Shown here piece by piece: positions 2,402 through 35,320 of a stretch of 64,000 nucleotides of DNA. Position 1 is the first letter of the stretch. Every line of letters begins with the position of its first letter. A model generated the notes under the pieces. The model did not search any database. It saw only the letters and a program-made list of their open reading frames with translations, and was not told the origin of the DNA. The translations under genes and the position numbers were made by a program. The stretch is from a virus. The stretch spans positions 39,637-103,636 of IMG/VR virus record IMGVR_UViG_3300047325_000130; one strand, written 5' to 3'.

Positions 2402-3093
2402 ATATAAAAGAATATTTTAGAATAGATGATTATACAATCAAAGATGGATTAATTTCTACCAATGATGATGTTGAATTAATCAAGAAAGTAAAAGAATTAC
2501 CAGTTCAATTCGGTTATGTTGGCGGTTATTTTTATTGTTATGATAATCAACTCACTTCTTTAGAAGGATCTCCGGAATCCGTTGGTGACGATTTTTATTG
2601 TTCTGAAAATCAACTAACTTCGTTAGTTGGGTGTCCAAATGAAGTTGGCGGCGGTTTTGTTTGTCGTGATAATCAACTCACTTCTTTGGAAGGATCTCCA
2701 CAATCGGTAGGTAATGGTTTTTACTGTCATAATAATCAACTCACTTCTTTAGACGGAGCTCCTGAATCCGTTGACGGTGATTTTGATTGTCGTAATAATC
2801 TACTTACTTCTTTAGCTGGATCTCCGCAATCCGTTGGTGGTAGTTTTAATTGTTCTAATAATAAACTCACCTCTTTAGAAGGAGCTCCAAAATTCGTTGG
2901 CGGTTATTTTTATTGTGGTTGGTCAGAAAATTTACCATTACTAAGATTAGTAAGATATAAAAAAGTACAAACATATAGTCGAGTAAATGAAATTATAAGA
3001 AAATATTCTTATCATAAGCCATTAAAAGAAGCTATATTATTATGTCAGAAAGAACTAATTGATAATGGCTTTGTAGGAAACGCAGCATGGTAG
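2395..3093 (+). CDS. LRR-like repeat protein, 6 x 21-aa repeats
   Basis: Same architecture; ATGGTAG overlap. Confidence 0.85.
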   Translation: MVDIKEYFRIDDYTIKDGLISTNDDVELIKKVKELPVQFGYVGGYFYCYDNQLTSLEGSPESVGDDFYCSENQLTSLVGCPNEVGGGFVCRDNQLTSLEGSPQSVGNGFYCHNNQLTSLDGAPESVDGDFDCRNNLLTSLAGSPQSVGGSFNCSNNKLTSLEGAPKFVGGYFYCGWSENLPLLRLVRYKKVQTYSRVNEIIRKYSYHKPLKEAILLCQKELIDNGFVGNAAW

Positions 3094-3585
3094 ATATAAA
3101 AAATATTTTCAAATAGAAAATTATACCATAAAAGATGGATTAATTTCTACTGATGATGATGTCAGATTAATCAAGAAAGTTGAAAAATTACCTTTTAAAT
3201 TCGGTCATATTGGTGGTTATTTTGATTGTCGTAATAATAAACTCATTTCTTTAGAGGGTGCTTCAAAATACGTTGGCGGCAGTTTTTCTTGCGCTTATAA
3301 TAAACTCACTTCTTTAGAAGGAGCTCCGCAATCAGTTGGTGTTATGATAATAAACTCACTTCTTTAGAAGGAGCTCCGCAATCAGTTGGTGGCAGTTTTT
3401 ATCTTACTTGGTCAGAAAATTTACCATTACTAAGATTGATAATATATCAAACTGTACAAACATTCAATAGTCAAGTAGATAAAATTATAGGAAAATATTG
3501 TAATCATAAACCATTAAAAGAAGCCATATTATTATGTCAGAAAGAACTAATAGATAACGGCTTTATAGGGAATGCAGCATGGTAA
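3087..3585 (+). pseudogene. Frameshifted fifth LRR-like paralog
   Basis: Starts ATGGTAGATATAAAA like its siblings, loses 1 nt at ~3100, has a second deletion near 3341, and ends ...GNAAW-TAA at 3585. Confidence 0.85.
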
Positions 3586-3616: not shown

Positions 3617-4081
3617 TTATTCGCTTTTAGCGATAAGCTCTGGTTCTAATTTAGGTAAAATTTTTGTTGTATCAATTGGTATCAATCTTGCTTTTCGAGC
3701 TTCCGGTATCTCTCTTGTAAGATCAATTGTCAACAAACCATTTGTCAAACTAGCCGAAACAACATTTACATGTTGTTCTAGATAGAATGATCGTTTAAAC
3801 GATCTACCTGCAATACCTCTATACAAGATTTGTTTTGATTCTTCTTCTTTTTTCTTACCTTCTATAGTAAGACGATTTTCTTCCTGAGAAACATCAATTT
3901 CAGATTCACCAAAACCTGCAACCGCAAGCGTAAGTCTGTATTGATTTTCAGAAACTTCCTCTAAATCATAGTGAGGATATGAAGAAGTATCATATCTAAA
4001 ATTGTTTAGAGCTCGAATTGTTGGTGAGAAACCAATTGCAAAACGATGTAGGTCATCAAATAGTTCATTAAATGTAGTCAT
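3617..4081 (-). CDS. hsp20: Small heat shock protein (Hsp20/IbpA family)
   Basis: SYPHYDL, AVAGF, YRGIAGRSFKRSF, LTNGLLTIDL alpha-crystallin motifs. Confidence 0.93.
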   Translation of the reverse strand: MTTFNELFDDLHRFAIGFSPTIRALNNFRYDTSSYPHYDLEEVSENQYRLTLAVAGFGESEIDVSQEENRLTIEGKKKEEESKQILYRGIAGRSFKRSFYLEQHVNVVSASLTNGLLTIDLTREIPEARKARLIPIDTTKILPKLEPELIAKSE

Positions 4082-4089
4082 TTTATTGT

Positions 4090-4137
4090 CTCCTTAAAAA
4101 GCGAGTTTAGTTTTTAAGACCTCTTATGAGCATCTTA
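4090..4137 (-). promoter_or_regulatory. ROSE-like RNA thermometer in the hsp20 leader
   Basis: Minus strand CUCGCUUUUUAAGGAG pairs UCGCU opposite the SD with a bulged G; preceded by the hairpin UAAGAUGCUC-AUAA-GAGGUCUUA. Confidence 0.6.
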
Positions 4138-4228
4138 TAATGACAAGTTTATGTCGTCCAATATAAGTTGTCAAGTAACTTGATAAAATTTTTCAATAAA
4201 TTTAATTTGATTTCTATAAATTAATCAT

Positions 4229-4236
4229 TATAAATA
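4229..4236 (+). promoter_or_regulatory. T4-like late promoter TATAAATA
   Basis: Exact TATAAATA upstream of the vWA leader. Also exact at 19471, 55711 and (minus) 11292-11299; TAAATA core at 23445, 23584, 24937, 25615, 27115, 47252, 50507, 59664. Confidence 0.65.
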
Positions 4237-4243
4237 TATTTAA

Positions 4244-4314
4244 TGCTCGAAGTGAGCAGGTTATGAGGCAGCGAAGACCATTCGGTGATGAGTGGCAGTA
4301 AAGACCTCAAAGGA
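4244..4314 (+). promoter_or_regulatory. Structured 5' leader with a two-fold symmetric internal loop
   Basis: UGCUC/GAGCA hairpin, then UGAGG-CAGCGAAGA-CCAUUC-loop-GAGUGG-CAGUAAAGA-CCUCA directly before the AAGGA SD. Confidence 0.55.
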
Positions 4315-4321
4315 CAATAGA

Positions 4322-5116
4322 ATGAACAACAATGGTAATCTACCAAATGCGTTTCCTGGCGCGCCAAATTTAAATTTAAATATTCAGGTAAATCAAAACG
4401 TACCAACCGGTACATCAACTACATCAGTACCATATATTGGTTATAAATTTCAAAAAGCAGGAACAAATGGCAATTTAATTGCAGTTCTACTTGATGAAAG
4501 TGGCAGTATGAATTCTTGTAGACATGCAACCATTGCAGGTTTTAATGAGTTTGTATTAGGACAAAAATCAGTTTCTAATGCCGGTGCTGCATATCTAACT
4601 CTTAATAAATTTGATTCACCCAAAATTACAACTGTTTACGCTGACAGAATTATTTCCGAAGTACCAGAATTAACAACATCAACTTATACACCAAACGGTG
4701 GTACTAATTTGTATGATGGTATTGGTTATACTATCGAACAAGTAAATAATGCACTTGCAAAAATCCCAGAAGATTCTCGTCCAGGTGTAACAATTGTTAT
4801 TACAACTGATGGACAAGAGAATTCTAGCAATAAATTTACCAGCGCAAAAATTAAAGAAATGGTTGCTGCTACTGAAGAAGCTGGGTGGAGCTACCTATTT
4901 TTAGCTGCTAACCTGGATTCATTTGCAGTTGGGTCTGCATTCGGTATGAATGCAATGAATTCTGTTAATTATAGCACATCTAAAATGGGTGCAACAATGA
5001 CTGCATTAAATTCTACTGTAACTAAAATGAGAGTAGCAAAAACAGCTGGTTTAGGTACTGAAGCAGTATATGCATCTGCTATGTTTACTGACCAAGAACG
5101 CAATGATATAGTTTAA
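4322..5116 (+). CDS. vWA (MIDAS) domain protein
   Basis: LLDESGSM, GGTNLYDG, ITTDGQEN; start moved to ATG 4322 behind the AAGGA SD. Confidence 0.85.
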   Translation: MNNNGNLPNAFPGAPNLNLNIQVNQNVPTGTSTTSVPYIGYKFQKAGTNGNLIAVLLDESGSMNSCRHATIAGFNEFVLGQKSVSNAGAAYLTLNKFDSPKITTVYADRIISEVPELTTSTYTPNGGTNLYDGIGYTIEQVNNALAKIPEDSRPGVTIVITTDGQENSSNKFTSAKIKEMVAATEEAGWSYLFLAANLDSFAVGSAFGMNAMNSVNYSTSKMGATMTALNSTVTKMRVAKTAGLGTEAVYASAMFTDQERNDIV

Positions 5117-11364: not shown

Positions 11365-11697
11365 CTATGTCAATGCGGGTTCGCGGGGAATTATGGTAAT
11401 ATCACTCCCCTTATAAGGGCCATCCAGAAGAACTGCCCTGTACCAGTTACACATACGGTCGTGAAATGTTAGAGGCATGACCCGCACCATGCATCCGTCG
11501 AGCGTGTCATATTCCGGCCCCAGCGCGAACTCTTTTCCAACATGATCTTCAGAAACGATGGGCTCTTCTGGCCACGGCAGGGTGTTGTCTAGCCGCCCGT
11601 ATTTGTCGATCATGATGTTATCTATGGCACACTTCAGGGACTGTATGATGTTCATTTGATCTATATAGCTACTAGTTAAGAAAATTCGTATGGGCAA
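11365..11697 (-). CDS. Hypothetical protein
   Basis: 110-aa ORF on the strand used by neighbouring genes. Confidence 0.45.
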   Translation of the reverse strand: MPIRIFLTSSYIDQMNIIQSLKCAIDNIMIDKYGRLDNTLPWPEEPIVSEDHVGKEFALGPEYDTLDGCMVRVMPLTFHDRMCNWYRAVLLDGPYKGSDITIIPREPALT

Positions 11698-11954
11698 AGA
11701 TCATATGCGCCTTTGCCCGGCGTCGCCTTATCATCGAAGCCTTCATGGCGTCGCCAGTTTTCGCCGCGACAAGTGATGACCATAAGCATTTCTTCCGGCC
11801 TCACCTCACGGTGGTATTCATCAAGGATTTTTGTGCAGGGTTGCGACCAGGAATACCCAATCCGAAAGCTCTTTGTGGCGGTTATCAACGTAGGGCAAAC
11901 GCCCATCCCGCGCTGCTTTTGCCAATATGTTCGCTTGTATCGCCGCGCCCGCAA
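11676..11954 (-). CDS. Hypothetical protein or fragment
   Basis: ORF on the operon strand; competing overlapping frames. Confidence 0.3.
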   Translation of the reverse strand: MRARRYKRTYWQKQRGMGVCPTLITATKSFRIGYSWSQPCTKILDEYHREVRPEEMLMVITCRGENWRRHEGFDDKATPGKGAYDLCPYEFS

Positions 11955-21211: not shown

Positions 21212-22645
21212 ATGAAAACAGCGACCGATGTAATTGCAAAGCTTGAAGCTCATAATGGTAAACTCGAAAAAGAGCAAATTGTTAAGGATGCATTTGCAGC
21301 TGGTATTTTTGAGTTTTTTGAAGCCGCTGCAATGGCATATAATAAACTACGCAGTTTTGGTGTTAAGCAAGTTCCGCTGATTGAGGATGAGGACGAGCCC
21401 GGGTTTGTTTCAACTTTTACTTGGGATCATTTTAAGATACTTGTTGCCAAACTTGAATCTCGCGAATTGACAGGTAATGCTGCGCGGGATGCGCTTCGTG
21501 CCGCAGCCGATAAATGCACTGTTCGTGATTGGAATGGATTTTATCGTCGAGTACTTATCCGTGATTTTAAATGTGGTGCGGGTGAGGGTACAATCAATCG
21601 TGCTCTTGCGGATTTAATGAAAGCAACAAAAGACAAGAAAATTAAGGCTGAATTGCTTAGGCACATGGTTCCTGAATTTAGTGTGCAACTTGCTAAGAAC
21701 GGCGACGATCATCCAAAGAAAATGACCGGTATCAAATTGCTTGATCCCAAGTTGGATGGTTGTCGATTAACTACGATAATTGATATCGTCGATAAAACAG
21801 TAACTCAATATACCCGCCATGGAGCAATTAACGATCGCTTCACTAATATTACAACTGCACTTGCTAAACTAATCCCTCTTCTAAAACGTAGTGTTGTTCT
21901 AGACGGCGAAGTAGTTAGTCAAAACTTTCAGCAGATGATGACTCAGCTAAATCGAAAAACTGCTGACACGCGCGATGCTAAGCTTGCATTGTTTGATATT
22001 ATCGCATTGGATGATTTTAAAAAGCTTCAAGACCCGGATCCTGAAGTAAAAAGTACTGCAAGCAAAATTACTCAAACAAAACGTCACGAAGAATTGGTCG
22101 AACTTATTCCTTTGTTGCAGCAAGTGTCAGGTGATACAGTTTACGTTATTCCTAAGTTGTCGGTAGATTTGAATACCGTCGAAGGACAACAGACCTTCAA
22201 AGAATTCAATAATACAACGGTCGCTGCTGGGTTTGAAGGTATTATGGTTAAGGATCCGATGGCGTCATATGAATGTGATCGCACATTTGCTTGGCTAAAA
22301 ATAAAACCGTTCATTACCGTTGATCTAGAAATTATCGACGTTCTCCCTGGTAACGCAGGCAGTAAGTATGAAAAGACTTTGGGCCGACTTGTTTGTAAAG
22401 GTGAAGAACAAGGAAAGAAAGTCAAAACCAAGTGCGGTGGCGGGTTTAGCGACAAGCAACGTGATGAAATTTGGACAGCATTTAAAAAGAATCCAAAGTC
22501 GGTTATTGGTTTAATTGTTGAGATCAAGGGAGACTGCTTGACCCTTAGTGCGGATGATGATTTAGATTTAGCAGAAGACGAATGGAGTGTACGTTTTCCG
22601 GTGTTTATGCGGTTCCGTGGGCAAGTACGGGGAGAAAAGATTTGA
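21212..22645 (+). CDS. lig: ATP-dependent DNA ligase
   Basis: PKLDGCR (motif I), LDGE, FDII, EGIMVK, WLKIKP, VRFPVF. Confidence 0.95.
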   Translation: MKTATDVIAKLEAHNGKLEKEQIVKDAFAAGIFEFFEAAAMAYNKLRSFGVKQVPLIEDEDEPGFVSTFTWDHFKILVAKLESRELTGNAARDALRAAADKCTVRDWNGFYRRVLIRDFKCGAGEGTINRALADLMKATKDKKIKAELLRHMVPEFSVQLAKNGDDHPKKMTGIKLLDPKLDGCRLTTIIDIVDKTVTQYTRHGAINDRFTNITTALAKLIPLLKRSVVLDGEVVSQNFQQMMTQLNRKTADTRDAKLALFDIIALDDFKKLQDPDPEVKSTASKITQTKRHEELVELIPLLQQVSGDTVYVIPKLSVDLNTVEGQQTFKEFNNTTVAAGFEGIMVKDPMASYECDRTFAWLKIKPFITVDLEIIDVLPGNAGSKYEKTLGRLVCKGEEQGKKVKTKCGGGFSDKQRDEIWTAFKKNPKSVIGLIVEIKGDCLTLSADDDLDLAEDEWSVRFPVFMRFRGQVRGEKI

Positions 22646-22647
22646 AC

Positions 22648-22836
22648 ATGAAACTCCGGCATTTTTTGCAGACGGTTGTAAATCAATTTGAGAGTTATCC
22701 TGACGATGAAGTGCTAACGCTGGGTGATTGGCTTGAGTCCAACGACCCTGCCGAGCCGGACCTGTGTTTCCGGGGTGTTTTCAAAATTAAGGTGGGAGAC
22801 TTTCGCGCTTGGCTTAATGAAACCAATGATAGTTAG
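22648..22836 (+). CDS. Hypothetical protein
   Basis: ATG just after the ligase stop. Confidence 0.5.
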   Translation: MKLRHFLQTVVNQFESYPDDEVLTLGDWLESNDPAEPDLCFRGVFKIKVGDFRAWLNETNDS

Positions 22837-23166
22837 ATGGCAAGTGCTCGCAGTACCATATCGGACCGATCTATGATTCTTTTCAAATTGACTTTAACGA
22901 ATCCGTTTATTAAAGAGAAATTTATTTCTGGTTGGGATAAATTTTATAAACTTAATAAACATAAAGTATTTGAGATTGATACTCATTATTATTCTAAATC
23001 TTTGTTCGAATTAGATGTAGATTTAAATTGGCTAGGGAGGGATCATGCTGGTCCAGAAATCTCAATAGCACTGTTTGGGTTTACTATTCGTTTAGTAATT
23101 TATGACATTCGGCATTGGGATTATGATAAAAACACCTGGCTTACGGAGAAGAGTAATGCGTTTTAA
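22837..23166 (+). CDS. Hypothetical protein
   Basis: DHAGPEISIALFG...YDIRHWDY. Confidence 0.6.
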   Translation: MASARSTISDRSMILFKLTLTNPFIKEKFISGWDKFYKLNKHKVFEIDTHYYSKSLFELDVDLNWLGRDHAGPEISIALFGFTIRLVIYDIRHWDYDKNTWLTEKSNAF

Positions 23167-23434
23167 ACAGTTGTCTCCCAAGTTCTTTCCATTTTTAGGA
23201 GCAATAATTTTACTTGTATTTTCAATTAAATGGACTACAAATTGGACACAAGATGAACTTGGTTGGGTCTGCAGCGGTCTCAAAATGATTTTTCAGCATT
23301 TAACAGGTACTCCGTTAATTAACGATACAGTGCATATTTCATTCGTTGTGGCATTGCTCATAAATGTATTTACATGCTTTAGTATGTTGGTATTTGATTT
23401 TTGGATTTGGGTTGTACATGCAATTTTTGGATAA
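23156..23434 (+). CDS. Hypothetical membrane protein
   Basis: GGAG SD; two hydrophobic segments. Confidence 0.55.
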   Translation: MRFKQLSPKFFPFLGAIILLVFSIKWTTNWTQDELGWVCSGLKMIFQHLTGTPLINDTVHISFVVALLINVFTCFSMLVFDFWIWVVHAIFG

Positions 23435-23454
23435 AATATCCAAATAAATATTAT

Positions 23455-23580
23455 TGTGGTAAGGAAAGTCTACCTACCGGTTGGCGCCGACAGAGTAGGT
23501 AGAGCAGGGATTGCAACTCTGTAAACGGAGAATGGGAAAACGGAGCGGACTTAACGTAGTTTGATACCTCACCGGCCACA
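23455..23580 (+). ncRNA. Candidate ~126-nt structured small RNA
   Basis: GC-rich island between two TAAATA motifs; closing stem UGUGGU/GCCACA, UCUACCUAC/GUAGGUAGA, GCAGGG/CUCUGU. Confidence 0.55.
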
Positions 23581-23613
23581 TGTTAAATAAATATAGGATA
23601 ACTTGGGTATTAT

Positions 23614-24714
23614 ATGAGAATTAGTGACTTAACAGAAAATTTAGTAGAATCGTATAGTTTGAATAGTTCTCGTATAGAACATCCGGAAGACCTGGTCTTA
23701 GAAGCTGCTGGATCAGGTGCAATCCAAGCGGTTAGAGCATTAGAGTACGCAGTATCAAATCCAGATTCAATAACTTTTAAACCAGACGGCAAGCCTGCTA
23801 TTATTTGGGGGAAAGACGAGAACGGATTTACAATGGGCGACAAATATATGTTCAAAAAACAAACAATGCCCAGGTCAGTAACTGAAATCGACGCTATACT
23901 ATTAAGTCGCCGCGGTGGCGGCCGAGAAGACTTAATTGATATGTATAAAAGACTTTGGCCAATATTTGAACAATCACTTAAACCAGAATTTAAAGGTTTT
24001 GTGATGGGAGATTTAATGTGGAATAAAACTCCCACCATTGTCAAATCAAATTATGAATTTAAACCAAATACGGTAACATATACTGTAGAAGTTAATTCTG
24101 AATTAGGGCAAGAAATTAGTAAGAGCATTGCTGGTATTGTCGCTCATAGTTATTTTTCTAGTATAGGCGGCACTGGATCACATATTCTTGATTTTAACCA
24201 ATTGAATACAAATGGTAAATTATTGATAATTAGTGATCATTTTACCAGCTCACCAAACATAGTAAGACCTATTAAGCTAACTCAATTGGAAGATTTTGTA
24301 TTGCAACAAAGACCTTTAATCAATGCATTCTTTCAATCCGGTATACAAGATCTCGGCGGAATATTAAAAAGATATGTCAATTTTAGAGTAAGAAGTTTAA
24401 GTTACTCTGGGTTCACCAAAGAGTTTTTGCCTTGGTTAGATACAACAGAAACTGGCGCCTTTAAAAAATTATCTATTAAAAAATGGATCAAATCTCATGC
24501 AAAAGAATTTGATGCAGTAGCTAACGTATTTTTAGGTATTACTACCGTAAAGAATGAAATTATTGCGCAGCTAGATAAATTACCAACCGAATTACATCCT
24601 TCTGTAAATGGTGTGCCTGGACACGAAGGGTATATTGTAAGTAGTAATACACAACCAATTAAATTGGTGAACAGATTTCATTTCAGTTCTGCTAATTTTA
24701 AAGAAAATCCATAA
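23614..24714 (+). CDS. Conserved T4-like phage protein with ligase-type KxDG motif (DUF6267-like)
   Basis: RIEHPEDL, FKPDGKPAIIWG, MGDLM, GHEGYIV, IKLVNR; late promoter; N-terminus MRISDLTE. Confidence 0.6.
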   Translation: MRISDLTENLVESYSLNSSRIEHPEDLVLEAAGSGAIQAVRALEYAVSNPDSITFKPDGKPAIIWGKDENGFTMGDKYMFKKQTMPRSVTEIDAILLSRRGGGREDLIDMYKRLWPIFEQSLKPEFKGFVMGDLMWNKTPTIVKSNYEFKPNTVTYTVEVNSELGQEISKSIAGIVAHSYFSSIGGTGSHILDFNQLNTNGKLLIISDHFTSSPNIVRPIKLTQLEDFVLQQRPLINAFFQSGIQDLGGILKRYVNFRVRSLSYSGFTKEFLPWLDTTETGAFKKLSIKKWIKSHAKEFDAVANVFLGITTVKNEIIAQLDKLPTELHPSVNGVPGHEGYIVSSNTQPIKLVNRFHFSSANFKENP

Positions 24715-31144: not shown

Positions 31145-34100
31145 ATGTCGTATATAGATGCCATTATAGATAAAGAAAAGAATCAGATTGTTGTTGTTGA
31201 ACGAAGAAATGATGGCAAACGATATTATAAGACATACCCAACTGAATACTTAACGTATTGGCCGAGCGAAAAAGGAAAATTTGAATCAATATTTGGAAAT
31301 AAATTAGAAAAATATAAAACCAATAATTGGAAAGAATTTCAAAAAGAAATTAAATTATTATCTGGTAAGAAATTACACGAATCAGATATTAATCCAATAT
31401 TTAGATGCTTATACGAGAATTATAGATCTCTACCCGCTCCTGATTTAAACATTGGATATTTTGATATAGAAACTGATTTCTCTAAAGATCGGGGGTTTTC
31501 TTCATCAGAAGAAGCTTTTATGCCTATAACTGCAATAACTATTTTTGTAAGTAATCATAATAAAAATTATACATTGGTTGTAGCACCTAAAGGAATAACA
31601 TCTGGTGCAGCACAATCTATTGTAGATAAATTTGAAAATACATTACTTTGCGAAAACGAAAAACAATTACTTGAAACATTCTTAATGTTAATTGAGGATG
31701 TTGATATATTAACTGGCTGGAATTGTCTTGACGAAAATTCTCCAATCTTTTTAGAAGATAGAATTATTAAAATTAAAAATTGTAAATCAAATCAAAAGCT
31801 AATTTCTGGAGAACAAATACTTAAGACGCACAATTCTGGTAAAAAAGAAAAACTTGTGATCGAATTAGATAACGGGTTGATAATTAATTCATCTGAGGAT
31901 CATAAATTTCCAATAATAAGTAAAAAATTTGAAAAATATACAAATTTAAATCAGATGAAAAATAATGGTCAAGTTATGAATTTAAAATCAATCGAAAAGC
32001 ATATCACTGATAATCATGTATATTTTAAATTAGAACTAAAAGGTAACAACAATTTAGACTTAACTTGGGGACAATATATAAAAAATAATTTAAATCTTTT
32101 ATTGGAATATCATTGGTTTGATATAGTTATTACAGAAAAAAACTTAAAAAATAAAATATGGAATTTTTATAAAGATTGTGGTAAATTAGAATCATCTGGT
32201 TTTACCCGGAGTGAGTATAAAAATCAAACTGTACCAAAATTATGGTCCTTTAAAAAGCATAAAGGTATTTTGACAACAGAAGATATAGAATTATTGTTGA
32301 ATCAAGACGTAATGCCGATTTACCTGAATAAAGTAAGAGGTGTTATAAATGTCAATATGAACGAAGTAATTGATAAAACTTATTGGAAATTGCTTGGATT
32401 TATATTTACTGATGGATTTTATTCAAAATATGATAATTGCTTTTCTATTTGTAATAAAAGAGAGGATGTAATTAGTTATTACGCTGAACTATTGAATACT
32501 CAATATAAATTAAAACGTCAAGATAATTGCTACTACGCAAATCGAAATAATGGTATGTTGAAGTTATTATCACCGTTTATCTATACAAATGAATGGAAAA
32601 AAGTTATTAATATAGAACTTTTTAGTAGATGTTCTATTTCTCAATTCTCACAATTTATATCGTCATCAATTGATGGTGATGGTAGTGTAGGAGATTCATC
32701 AGTATCTATATGTGAATTTCAAAATAATTCAGAATCTTTTCAAACACTGTTTTCATGGTTTGGTATATATAGTAATCGTCGCGCCGATAATATATCAGTT
32801 CCTTTTCATGAACATAACAATCAATTTTTAAATATGCTTGAATTATCACATGGCGATAAAAAGGCAAAACTTTTAGAAAGAAGAATGTTTGTAACAGTAG
32901 GCGCTCCAAATAAAAAGTTAAAACAAGTATATGATAAAGTTGAGAAATCTTTTTATATAAGAATTCGTAATATAAAACGAACAGGACTAATGGTTTGTAT
33001 GTTTGATATTATGACTGAATCACAATATTTTATATGTAACGGTGCGAAGGTACATAACAGTACCTCTTATGATGTACCTTATACACATAATAGAATTATT
33101 CAAGTTTTAGGAAAAGAGGAAACTCGCAAACTCTGTCTATTAGGTAAATTCCCAAAGAAAAGAGAATATACCCAATATGGTAAAGAGCAAATAACATATG
33201 ATTTGATAGGTAGAGTTCATATCGATTATCTGGATTTATATAAGAAACACGTAACTCATGAAATGCATAGTTATAGACTTGACTATGTGGGTGAGGTAGA
33301 AGTTGGTGATAGAAAGACTCCTTACGAGGGTACTTTAGATCAATTATATAATAATGATTTCGAAAAGTTTATTGAATATAACAGGCAGGACGTGTTGCTG
33401 CTGGTTAAGATTGATAAAAAATTAAAATTTATTCAACTTGCAAATGAAATTGCACATACCAATACAGTTTTAATACCAACAACAATGGGCGCGGTTGCGC
33501 TTATTGACCAAGCAATTGTTAACTTTGCGTGGAATAAAAATCTACATGTTCCTACAAGAGAACGAGAAACAATTGAAGAAAGAAACATACGACATCTTGA
33601 AGAAGAAGAGTCCGGTGTAGTTGGCATAGTAGGTGCATATGTTGCTGATCCAAAACCCGGATTGCATGATTGGATAGGCGGCGTTGATATTAACAGTCTA
33701 TATCCAAGTACTATTAGAGCGTTGAATATGAGTCCCGAAACTGTAATAGGGCAGATACGTTCAGATTTTACTGATGAATTAATAAAATCTAGAATGTCCT
33801 CTAAAATTTTAATTGACGATGCAAAAGTTAATTTATTTGGTCCAGACACTTATCAGAAATTGTTGATTGATGCACGAACAAGCAAAGAACTGTCATTTGC
33901 AGACGCGTGGCATGAAATGTTTGGTACTCTTGAATATAATTGGATTATGGATCAGACTGATACTGTTCTTACAATAGATTTTGAAGATGGTAGTGAAGTA
34001 CGAGCAACAGCAGCAGAGATATATGAATTAATATTTGATGGCACAAACAAATGGATGTTAAGCGCAAATGGCACGATACTTGATATTTCTAAAGCAGGTT

Positions 34101-35320
34101 TAATCCCAACAGTTTTATCAACTTGGTATGCCGAACGAAAAAGTCTACAGGCCAAAGCAAAGGAATTTGATGCACTTGCATCAGCCGAAACTGATCCAGA
34201 TAAAAAGAAAGAACTATTGGCTCAATATGAGCATTATGATAGATTGCAATATATTAAGAAAATTCTTTTGAATTCTCTATATGGCGCGGTGGGAAATATG
34301 GGGTCGAGGTGGTTCGATGTTCGTATAGCTCAAAGTACAACTCTTAGTGGTAGATGCATTGCTAAGCATATGAATGGTAAAATTAATGATATCTTGACCG
34401 GAGACTATAATCATAAAGGCGCTGCGGTGATTTACTCGGATACAGATTCATCTTATTTCTCAGCCTACAAAGTAATGATGGACGAACCAGAGTTTGCTGA
34501 TTATGAATGGACACCGGAGAACGTTATTAAGTTATATGATAGCATAGGTGATATGACCAACGCATCATTCCCAGAATTTATGAAGCAAGCATTTAATTGT
34601 CCAGAAGAAAACGGTAAGCTTATTAAAGCATCTCGAGAACTTTGTGCAAGCAAAGGATTGTTTATTACCAAGAAACGTTATGCAGTTATGATTTTTGATA
34701 AGGAAGGCAAGAGAAAAGATAAAAACGGCCCCGGCGAAGTTAAAGTTATGGGTATGGATCTTAAAAGAAGTGACACACCCAAACCGGTACAAGAATTCTT
34801 ATTTGAAGTCTTAACTTCGGTTCTTACCGGCGGAACAAAAGAAACTGTTTTACAACAGATAGCTGATTTTAGAATTAAATTTAAAGATTGGCCAAGTTGG
34901 GAAAAAGGTAGTCCAAAGCGTGTTAATAATTTGACTTATTATGGTAATGTGAAAAACAATCAAGAGTCACCTGACGTAAGAAAAAGTTCAGTTAAGAAAA
35001 TGATTCCCGGGCATGTTCTAGCAAGTATTAACTGGAATAACCTAAAGAAAATATATAATGACGCATATAGCGTTCCTATTATGGATGGCGCAAAGGTTAT
35101 TGTTTGCAAGGTAAAGCCTAACCCCGCGGGTATCACAAGTGTAGCTTATCCAACAGATCAACATGTCTTACCAGAGTGGTTTAGAACCTTACCATTTGAT
35201 ACCGATTTAATGGAAACGACTCTGATTGATAAAAAAATTGGAAATTTATTAGATGTATTAAATTGGGATCTAAGTCAAGCCAAAAGTGATTCGAGTTTTT
35301 CAGATTTATTTCAATTTTAA
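31145..35320 (+). CDS. polB: Family B DNA polymerase (intein-containing)
   Basis: ExoI FDIETD, ExoII GWN/STSYD, ExoIII YNRQD; DINSLYPS, KILLNSLYG, YSDTDS, KKRYA. Confidence 0.97.
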   Translation: MSYIDAIIDKEKNQIVVVERRNDGKRYYKTYPTEYLTYWPSEKGKFESIFGNKLEKYKTNNWKEFQKEIKLLSGKKLHESDINPIFRCLYENYRSLPAPDLNIGYFDIETDFSKDRGFSSSEEAFMPITAITIFVSNHNKNYTLVVAPKGITSGAAQSIVDKFENTLLCENEKQLLETFLMLIEDVDILTGWNCLDENSPIFLEDRIIKIKNCKSNQKLISGEQILKTHNSGKKEKLVIELDNGLIINSSEDHKFPIISKKFEKYTNLNQMKNNGQVMNLKSIEKHITDNHVYFKLELKGNNNLDLTWGQYIKNNLNLLLEYHWFDIVITEKNLKNKIWNFYKDCGKLESSGFTRSEYKNQTVPKLWSFKKHKGILTTEDIELLLNQDVMPIYLNKVRGVINVNMNEVIDKTYWKLLGFIFTDGFYSKYDNCFSICNKREDVISYYAELLNTQYKLKRQDNCYYANRNNGMLKLLSPFIYTNEWKKVINIELFSRCSISQFSQFISSSIDGDGSVGDSSVSICEFQNNSESFQTLFSWFGIYSNRRADNISVPFHEHNNQFLNMLELSHGDKKAKLLERRMFVTVGAPNKKLKQVYDKVEKSFYIRIRNIKRTGLMVCMFDIMTESQYFICNGAKVHNSTSYDVPYTHNRIIQVLGKEETRKLCLLGKFPKKREYTQYGKEQITYDLIGRVHIDYLDLYKKHVTHEMHSYRLDYVGEVEVGDRKTPYEGTLDQLYNNDFEKFIEYNRQDVLLLVKIDKKLKFIQLANEIAHTNTVLIPTTMGAVALIDQAIVNFAWNKNLHVPTRERETIEERNIRHLEEEESGVVGIVGAYVADPKPGLHDWIGGVDINSLYPSTIRALNMSPETVIGQIRSDFTDELIKSRMSSKILIDDAKVNLFGPDTYQKLLIDARTSKELSFADAWHEMFGTLEYNWIMDQTDTVLTIDFEDGSEVRATAAEIYELIFDGTNKWMLSANGTILDISKAGLIPTVLSTWYAERKSLQAKAKEFDALASAETDPDKKKELLAQYEHYDRLQYIKKILLNSLYGAVGNMGSRWFDVRIAQSTTLSGRCIAKHMNGKINDILTGDYNHKGAAVIYSDTDSSYFSAYKVMMDEPEFADYEWTPENVIKLYDSIGDMTNASFPEFMKQAFNCPEENGKLIKASRELCASKGLFITKKRYAVMIFDKEGKRKDKNGPGEVKVMGMDLKRSDTPKPVQEFLFEVLTSVLTGGTKETVLQQIADFRIKFKDWPSWEKGSPKRVNNLTYYGNVKNNQESPDVRKSSVKKMIPGHVLASINWNNLKKIYNDAYSVPIMDGAKVIVCKVKPNPAGITSVAYPTDQHVLPEWFRTLPFDTDLMETTLIDKKIGNLLDVLNWDLSQAKSDSSFSDLFQF
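31724..33058 (+). mobile_element. 445-aa intein with LAGLIDADG endonuclease in the PolB ExoII motif
   Basis: Begins CLDENS after GWN, ends KVHN before Ser; SEDHKF block B; LLGFIFTDG and SSIDGDGS motifs. Confidence 0.93.

Follow-up and report, generated by a model that had tools for sequence, protein, structure and literature searches.

The window, that is, the whole stretch of 64,000 nucleotides analyzed here, belongs to a 103.6-kb IMG/VR virus record with an estimated completeness of 26% and a GC content of 36%. The locus of interest is a spacer of 179 nt between the end of a small open reading frame at 23434 and the start of the DUF6267 gene at 23614. Most intergenic stretches of the record contain approximately 24–35% GC; the segment from 23455 to 23580 forms an island with 50% GC, as measured over 100 nt. 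The first-pass annotation had given the sequence of this segment and placed a TAAATA-containing box just 5′ of it, and both were found as claimed. The box, AAATAAATAT, is late-promoter-like and occupies positions 23442–23451 on the + strand, ending 3 nt before P1, the first helix of the RNA described below. A second copy at 23585–23594 (+) lies 19 nt before the DUF6267 start codon. The 10-mer has just these two occurrences in the 103.6-kb record, both flanking the RNA, and no terminator was found between the RNA and the downstream box. The DUF6267 gene (23614–24714, +; Pfam PF19782, E = 2e-32) is context only and lies outside the RNA family. The three small overlapping open reading frames 5′ of the RNA (84, 109, and 110 aa; 22582–23434) had no Pfam or PHROG match. 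ARAGORN found no tRNA gene in the window or in the 103.6-kb record, which holds only approximately 26% of the genome.

The spacer was compared with those of DUF6267 relatives. Directly 5′ of the DUF6267 gene, a (T)ATAAATAT box was present in 14 of the 17 relatives with a callable gene, and in 14 of the 17 the spacer to the previous gene measured 15–29 nt and contained a single promoter-like box without the RNA. Searches with blastn, nhmmer, and the single-sequence model R1 detected no similar RNA at 80 loci of DUF6267 relatives with 27–42% identity; the closest relative, P0002 (60% identity), is on a contig outside the loci compared. Because the spacer of the relatives holds the box alone, we conclude that the RNA is an extra unit at the window site. 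TAAATA is not enriched in the genome (73 occurrences on the + strand vs. approximately 110 expected from base composition), and thus the promoter reading rests mainly on the conservation of the box upstream of the DUF6267 relatives. From this conservation we infer that the AAATAAATAT box acts as a promoter. Late transcription of the window copy from the upstream box is plausible; with a T4-type start approximately 6 nt past the box, the transcript is predicted to begin at the first base or bases of P1. In one group of DUF6267 relatives (L023–L034, just upstream of position 3001), the (T)ATAAATAT box lies 3–6 nt before the called start codon, and late transcripts from these boxes would have little or no leader unless translation truly starts further 3′.

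Several other features of this record and of related loci were noted. A 44%-GC intergenic stretch (G000:C1:38836-39046), approximately 600–800 nt before the first base of the window, has strong hairpins (MFE of −54.6 kcal/mol for 211 nt) and may be another structured RNA of the same phage. The GC-richest spacer of the record is an intergenic island within the window, at 11656–11775, which has 48% GC and contains GC-rich hairpins. The family-B DNA polymerase (1391 aa; 31145–35320) carries an intein-like insert with a weak Intein_splicing match at residues 223–638. The loci of DNA-ligase relatives had no synteny in common with the window; in four IMG/VR phages (L108–L111, approximately 3620–5000), an insertion of approximately 1.4 kb, possibly an intron, an intein, or a homing-endonuclease cassette, interrupts the ATP-dependent DNA ligase homologue near residue 184.

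Folding of 23455–23580 (+) gave a structure with a minimum free energy (MFE) of −38.8 kcal/mol, consisting of a closing helix, two adjacent hairpins, and a 3′ domain. Its z-score was −1.86, and 9 of 200 shuffled sequences folded equally well, which is weak evidence when taken alone; the minus strand of the same segment folded no better than chance. The MFE fold was identical to the structure derived independently from covariation among the homologues described below. All of its parts are given here on the + strand. The 5′ strand of P1, UGUGG plus the U of a closing U·G pair, occupies 23455–23460, and its 3′ strand, CCACA, which covaries with it, occupies 23576–23580; among the homologues, P1 positions 1–6 are paired in 84–100% of the sequences, with up to six pair types. 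The purine-rich junction AAGGAAAGU at 23461–23469, the 5′ part of J1/2, is near-invariant in at least 131 distinct sequences and unpaired in the consensus structure. It is followed by accessory hairpin A (23469–23503; UCUACCUACC...GGUAGGUAGA), with the palindromic apex GGCGCC, which is found in long forms only and has a stem whose sequence differs in each member and always pairs. Accessory hairpin B (23504–23522; GCAGGG-AUUGCAA-CUCUGU) has the loop palindrome UUGCAA, and RNAalifold predicted it for the long forms, with compensatory changes between columns 63–67 and 77–81. With these two extra hairpins, each of which has a palindromic apical loop, the window RNA belongs to the long form.

The remaining parts make up the core. 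The middle core AAACGGAGAAUGGGAA (23523–23538) comprises AAA, the rest of J1/2; the P2 5′ strand CGGAGA; AU; and the GG of P2b. The variable hairpin P3 (23539–23562; AAAC...GUUU, with an inner ACG/CGU) was aligned as P3 by the covariance model R2; in the window copy it is weaker than in most members. The 3′ core GAUACCUCACCGG (23563–23575) comprises the internal loop GAUA, the CC of P2b, the P2 3′ strand UCACCG, and the G of the closing U·G pair, and its columns 28–40 are invariant or covarying. Both core segments fall within the R2 match. In the single-sequence ensemble of the window copy, P2 had a probability of approximately 0.15.

The closing helix UGUGG(U)/(G)CCACA and the GCAGGG-AUUGCAA-CUCUGU arm had both been proposed in the first-pass annotation, and both are in the MFE fold, the closing helix also in the covariation-derived structure. 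The arm that had been described as 9 bp, UCUACCUAC/GUAGGUAGA, is likewise in the MFE fold, with 9–10 bp. The proposed long-range AAGUCU/GGACUU helix fared differently: enforcing it cost 7.2 kcal/mol, and its strands belong to the stem of hairpin A and to P3, which are variable or absent in the homologues. An alternative closing helix, GGUAAGG/CCUCACC, was rejected, since P1 covaries independently. A coding reading was rejected as well: the 42-aa minus-strand open reading frame over the GC island had no ribosome-binding site, and the changes in the family are compensatory and not codon-like.

Homologues were identified by three pattern scans of IMG/VR, which together yielded at least 131 distinct sequences in at least 174 loci, nearly all of them phage contigs. 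For the pattern GATACCTCACC-N(0-2)-GCCACA, there were 71 loci among the matches listed, compared with approximately three expected by chance, and approximately 66 were clear homologues. The matches listed for the second pattern, GGAGAATGGG-N(18-48)-GATACCTC, and for the third, AAGGAAAGTAAAMGGAG, are lower bounds. The apparent invariance of several core blocks is partly a product of the scan patterns: GGAGAAUGGG, GAUACCUC, and AAGGAAAGUAAA were each prescribed by one or more patterns, and each could vary in another. Copies lacking annotation were found in the cultured phages Ralstonia phage RSP15 (after tRNA-Leu), Cobetia phage Carin-5, and Vibrio phage 1.121.O (blastn, short form), and a complete 162-kb phage with terminal repeats had a family match at 31282–31335. 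All four of the complete phage genomes checked contained a single copy. Among the 120 matches listed for prokaryote genomes, 119 were due to chance and one, on short contigs of a small metagenome-assembled genome (MAG), was real; an 18-base pattern is too loose for 596 Gb, and this result says little about bacteria. The family RNA was not found in 150 other genomes of the phylum of the positive MAG. Two narrower searches gave no relatives: the window region had no blastn homologue among the INPHARED phages, and the exact 15-mer GGAAAGTCTACCTAC had 17 matches in IMG/VR, all due to chance.

The alignments revealed short and long forms of one architecture. The short forms, 55–95 nt in length, have the order P1 - UAAGGAAAGU - AAA(A/C)GGAG(N)AUGGG(C/A)A - hairpin P3 - (R)GAUACC(N)CACC(N)G - P1′, with a minimal form of about 57 nt, within a range of approximately 55–75 nt. 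In the long forms, of 110–145 nt, two hairpins are inserted in the junction after AAAGU. P1 is followed by the 12-nt invariant purine-rich junction AAGGAAAGU/AAA and then by P2, NGGAGN/NCACCN, which has a central A·A and is stacked directly on P1. Beyond P2 are AU, a GG/CC step, an internal loop of G(C/A)A opposite (R)GAUA, and P3, which is present in almost all members, is free in sequence, and ranges from approximately 8 to 45 nt. In one subclass of P3 (e.g., L126:536-619 and L369:1495-1577), CGAAA lies opposite GAGUAG and resembles a loop-E or sarcin-ricin (bulged-G) motif; other members have a plain GAAA tetraloop.

Support for these helices was determined for 53 distinct short forms (alignment A5). 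Under the P1, P2, and P3 structure, 85.5% of cells were paired vs. 66.9% in shuffles, and the covariation score was 0.471 vs. 0.152 for shuffled alignments; none of 500 shuffles reached 0.471, and slid controls gave 0.05–0.10. RNAalifold independently returned the same helices plus the GG/CC step. In at least 131 sequences, the outer pair of P2 was A-U in 84, C-G in 43, and C·C in 4, and the inner pair was A-U in 92, C-G in 26, and G-C in 13; mutual information was 0.94 for each pair. The first and last bases of the core pair as U·G, C-G, or A·A. The base at junction position 2 (A or C) changes together with the outer P2 pair, a hint of a base triple. U·G and G·U pairs occur in P1 and P3, and because of these pairs and of an orientation in common with the neighboring tRNAs, we assign the RNA to the + strand. 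The search for homologues and covariation that the first-pass annotation had proposed thus yielded relatives with a conserved structure.

Membership of the window copy was examined with covariance model R2, which was built from 53 short forms with the window sequence excluded. R2 matched the window at 23521–23574 with 36.7 bits (E = 1.9e-8), and this was the sole match in the window and in the 103.6-kb record. The match is local (model positions 17–73) because a 53-nt insert interrupts the junction of the window copy. The 15 nt at the 5′ end of the window copy are identical to the family consensus, and the copy carries all of the invariant blocks, its outer P2 pair being C-G and its inner pair A-U. 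On this comparative evidence, the island genuinely encodes a small, tightly folded RNA, whose family is absent from Rfam and recurs in well over a hundred large phages.

The apical loops of the accessory hairpins have a property that the family retains. The apex of hairpin A contains a 6-nt palindrome in 80% of the long forms, represented by nine different sequences, the commonest of which is CUGCAG. The loop of hairpin B contains a 6-nt palindrome in 72% of the members, represented by three sequences: UGAUCA, UAAUUA, and UUGCAA, the last of which is found in the window. Only 7% of P3 loops, used as a control, contained a 6-nt palindrome. Because palindromy is kept while the sequence changes, and a 6-nt palindrome cannot pair within its own loop, loop-loop pairing between molecules is suggested. 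The pattern suggests that the long forms self-associate through kissing loops of their accessory hairpins; alternatively, the palindromes could be DNA-level sites or binding sites of a dimeric protein. A precedent for such a loop is the HIV-1 DIS, a kissing-loop dimerization hairpin with a 6-nt palindromic loop. Like the DIS, hairpin B has a 6-nt self-complementary loop, the identity of which varies in the family (UGAUCA, UAAUUA, or UUGCAA) with palindromy kept. The two RNAs and their contexts are unrelated, however, and dimerization of the family RNA is a prediction from its loops.

The family did not correspond to any catalogued RNA in the searches performed. Rfam 15 gave no match in the whole window at gathering scores, and at E≤10 the region 23300–23750 had only a 12-bit DUF805b match, which we consider to be noise. 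Infernal comparison with the RNase P, tRNA, and Rfam models, a check that the first-pass annotation had suggested, gave no match. Searches of the literature by motif strings and by topic retrieved no description of the family RNA, which is no proof of absence. The earlier proposal of a structured small RNA outside Rfam therefore agrees with our results. HDV-like folds, an 11-nt tetraloop receptor, and mimicry of SD/anti-SD pairing were each considered and ruled out on pairing geometry or covariation.

The genomic context of the family was examined in 130 loci with distinct sequences. A same-strand tRNA lies within 40 nt of the RNA in 74 of them (approximately 57%); 98 have same-strand tRNAs somewhere in the locus, and 32 have none in the fetched locus. 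Typically, the RNA starts approximately 4 nt past the CCA of the upstream tRNA and the next tRNA begins approximately 7–11 nt past the end of the RNA, so that the spacing between RNA and tRNA in the arrays is similar to that between tRNAs. The model RF00005 detected the neighboring tRNAs in the loci of relatives and never the RNA itself. Location in a tRNA array is thus usual and not obligatory, and the window copy is not so placed. No association with one particular tRNA was found, the identities of the neighboring tRNAs being varied. Some of the stand-alone copies are followed by an intrinsic terminator, and others by a ribosome-binding site and an unrelated gene. The consistent class of downstream gene that would indicate a riboswitch or leader was not found in the family loci: what follows is mostly tRNAs, and the protein genes are unrelated to each other. 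In one phage tRNA array (L127), a permuted (two-piece) tmRNA gene (3005–3253; RF04321, 100.7 bits) lies approximately 700 nt upstream of the family RNA copy.

Two features of the window locus turned out not to be family traits. The first-pass annotation had considered the RNA as a possible substrate of the adjacent enzymes, but DUF6267 and the HxGH nucleotidyltransferase were near none of 110 family loci, and no protein family occurred in more than 10% of the 130 loci; an association with DUF6267, the nucleotidyltransferase, or another protein was not borne out. The putative late-promoter drive would likewise be particular to the window copy: among at least 131 distinct members, a TAAATA box lies directly upstream only in the window copy. 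Taken together, the earlier observation was partly confirmed and its interpretation partly supported.

Three kinds of phage RNA invite comparison with the family. RNAs C and D of T4 (species 1 and 2; rnaC and rnaD), at the end of the T4 tRNA cluster, are small stable RNAs of 119–139 nt. Like the family RNA, they belong to a large virulent phage and are encoded on the tRNA strand, directly beside tRNA genes. They are not homologous to it, however: R2 gave no match on T4 70.9–71.2 kb with filters off, and rnaC has a tRNA-like T-arm (GGGUUCGAAUCCC) whereas the family RNA has none. GOLLD and ROOL are large ornate RNAs that are often near phage tRNAs and form homo-oligomers (PMC12286853). They resemble the family in being phage-linked, tRNA-adjacent structured RNAs; self-association has been demonstrated for them and is suggested by the loops in the family. 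Their lengths run to hundreds of nucleotides, and the Rfam families that represent them gave no match here, whereas the family RNA measures 55–145 nt. The third kind, theta (minimal HDV-like) ribozymes, lie immediately beside tRNA genes of uncultivated phages (PMC10879173) and are, like the family, small conserved RNAs adjoining phage tRNAs. HDV-like ribozymes fold as a nested double pseudoknot and carry a catalytic C in J4/2; in the family RNA, by contrast, the 5′ end pairs with the 3′ end and the supported helices are nested only.

Our best reading, which we regard as probable although far from secure, is that 23455–23580 (+) is a long-form member of an uncatalogued family of compact small RNAs of large virulent phages and would act in trans as a stable RNA. 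In most phages the RNA would be co-transcribed with tRNAs and freed passively by the processing of its tRNA neighbors. P1 would then shield both ends of the RNA and allow it to accumulate as a stable trans-acting species. To our knowledge, structured RNAs with covariation-proven helices and dozens of invariant core nucleotides nearly always have a precise biochemical job, as do riboswitches, ribozymes, and RNP scaffolds. The approximately 35 invariant nucleotides of the family may serve as a surface to which a partner binds specifically; this partner would be conserved in very different hosts, the likeliest candidates being a widely shared phage protein and components of translation or of tRNA metabolism. 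Long forms would pair with each other by kissing of their self-complementary apical loops. In the window phage, the gene would have been relocated from a tRNA array to a position between two late-promoter-like DUF6267 boxes, and would thus be made late. The window RNA would head the DUF6267 transcript, or it would be released as a free 126-nt RNA by cleavage in the AU-rich spacer. Because no terminator follows the window copy, a discrete 126-nt species would need processing.

A bolder proposal, to which we give a small but real chance, is that the family represents a new functional class of natural RNA. Its members would be stand-alone aptamers or ribozymes, or else trans-acting RNAs that target the translation or tRNA apparatus of the host; large phages would express them from tRNA operons, and the long forms would self-assemble through two kissing loops per molecule. 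If this were true, the class would be a phage countermeasure or take-over tool made of RNA alone.

Other explanations were weighed against the same evidence. The minimal form of approximately 55–75 nt, the highly conserved core, the location between tRNAs, and the precedent of ribozymes adjoining phage tRNAs (PMC10879173) would all suit a small self-cleaving or otherwise catalytic RNA that helps to cut the transcripts of phage tRNA operons, in the style of the theta (HDV-like) ribozymes. We consider this unlikely, as several results oppose it: the covariation-supported helices are all nested, with no pseudoknot and no HDV-like topology; the Rfam ribozyme models gave no match even at E≤10; no conserved nucleotides outside P1 mark a flanking cleavage site; and approximately 35 invariant positions exceed the usual need of small ribozymes.

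A comparably low probability attaches to a stand-alone aptamer, expressed at a high level from tRNA operons, that would bind or sequester a small molecule such as a nucleotide signal used in host immunity. The size of the RNA is aptamer-like, and its invariant junction and internal-loop nucleotides, with the three-way covariation of junction position 2 and the outer P2 pair, would fit this reading, as would the lack of an expression platform or fixed downstream gene. Its target would have to be widely conserved, given the diversity of the hosts. The idea is purely by analogy, however; the RNA shows no likeness to the riboswitch classes in Rfam and no genetic link to a metabolic or defence gene.

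It is equally improbable, in our estimation, that the RNA is a cis-acting structured 5′ leader that stabilizes or regulates the late mRNA of DUF6267 and the nucleotidyltransferase in the window phage. A base-paired 5′ end is a known stabilizer of mRNA, and here transcription from the upstream box is predicted to begin at the first base of P1 and no terminator separates the RNA from the DUF6267 gene. Approximately six other stand-alone members lie 15–45 nt upstream of a ribosome-binding site and start codon; the genes downstream of these members are, however, mutually unrelated, and what comes next is a tRNA in most members and a terminator in some. In the window itself, the second promoter-like box 3′ of the RNA would give transcripts without the RNA leader, and no segment of the element pairs with the translation start region.

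A MITE-like origin, in which the element would be a miniature mobile DNA that duplicated a 10-bp target on insertion and whose RNA fold is incidental, appears very unlikely. Exact 10-bp direct repeats do flank the element and occur nowhere else in the 103.6 kb, its ends are the short inverted repeats UGUGG/CCACA, and the DUF6267 relatives examined lack it at this site. Nevertheless, the record and the four complete phage genomes contain one copy each, none of the other 130 members is bordered by such repeats or by TAAATA boxes, and the compensatory changes and G·U pairs in the homologues are explained only by selection at the RNA level.

Least credible of all is a reduced RNase P RNA, a tRNA-like mimic, or a decoy of either, because no model matched and no P4 helix is conserved, which contradicts homology. 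The octamer AGGAAAGU is common to the CR-I block of RNase P RNA (RF00010) and to the conserved junction of the family, and the usual home of the family is among tRNA genes; all of the Rfam RNase P and tRNA models, however, were unmatched even at E≤10 (RF00010 in the whole record, with matches in control genomes), ARAGORN found no tRNA, the core has no T-arm-like element, and the family RNA is one-quarter to one-third the length of RNase P RNA. The echo of P4 strands that the first-pass annotation had noticed did not hold: ACGGAGCGGACUUA is not conserved as a block, since the core includes just the first part of it, AAACGGAG; GGAAAGU, the other supposed strand, is conserved but is an unpaired junction; the supposed partner lies in the variable P3, short forms having no complementary ACUU; and enforcing the helix costs 7.2 kcal/mol.

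Returning to the favored reading, a trans-acting stable RNA of large virulent phages, the family is widespread: its hosts include Ralstonia, the Vibrio group, and Cobetia, and it is found on environmental contigs of widely differing base composition. For annotation, it accounts for a recurrent gap in phage tRNA regions that lacks annotation. At least three cultured phages carry the RNA, which makes it open to study at once. With it, the passengers of phage tRNA arrays are of three kinds, tRNAs and tmRNA being the other two, and the decades-old question of what role non-tRNA RNAs have in phage tRNA operons, raised also by T4 RNAs C and D, GOLLD, and ROOL, becomes sharper.
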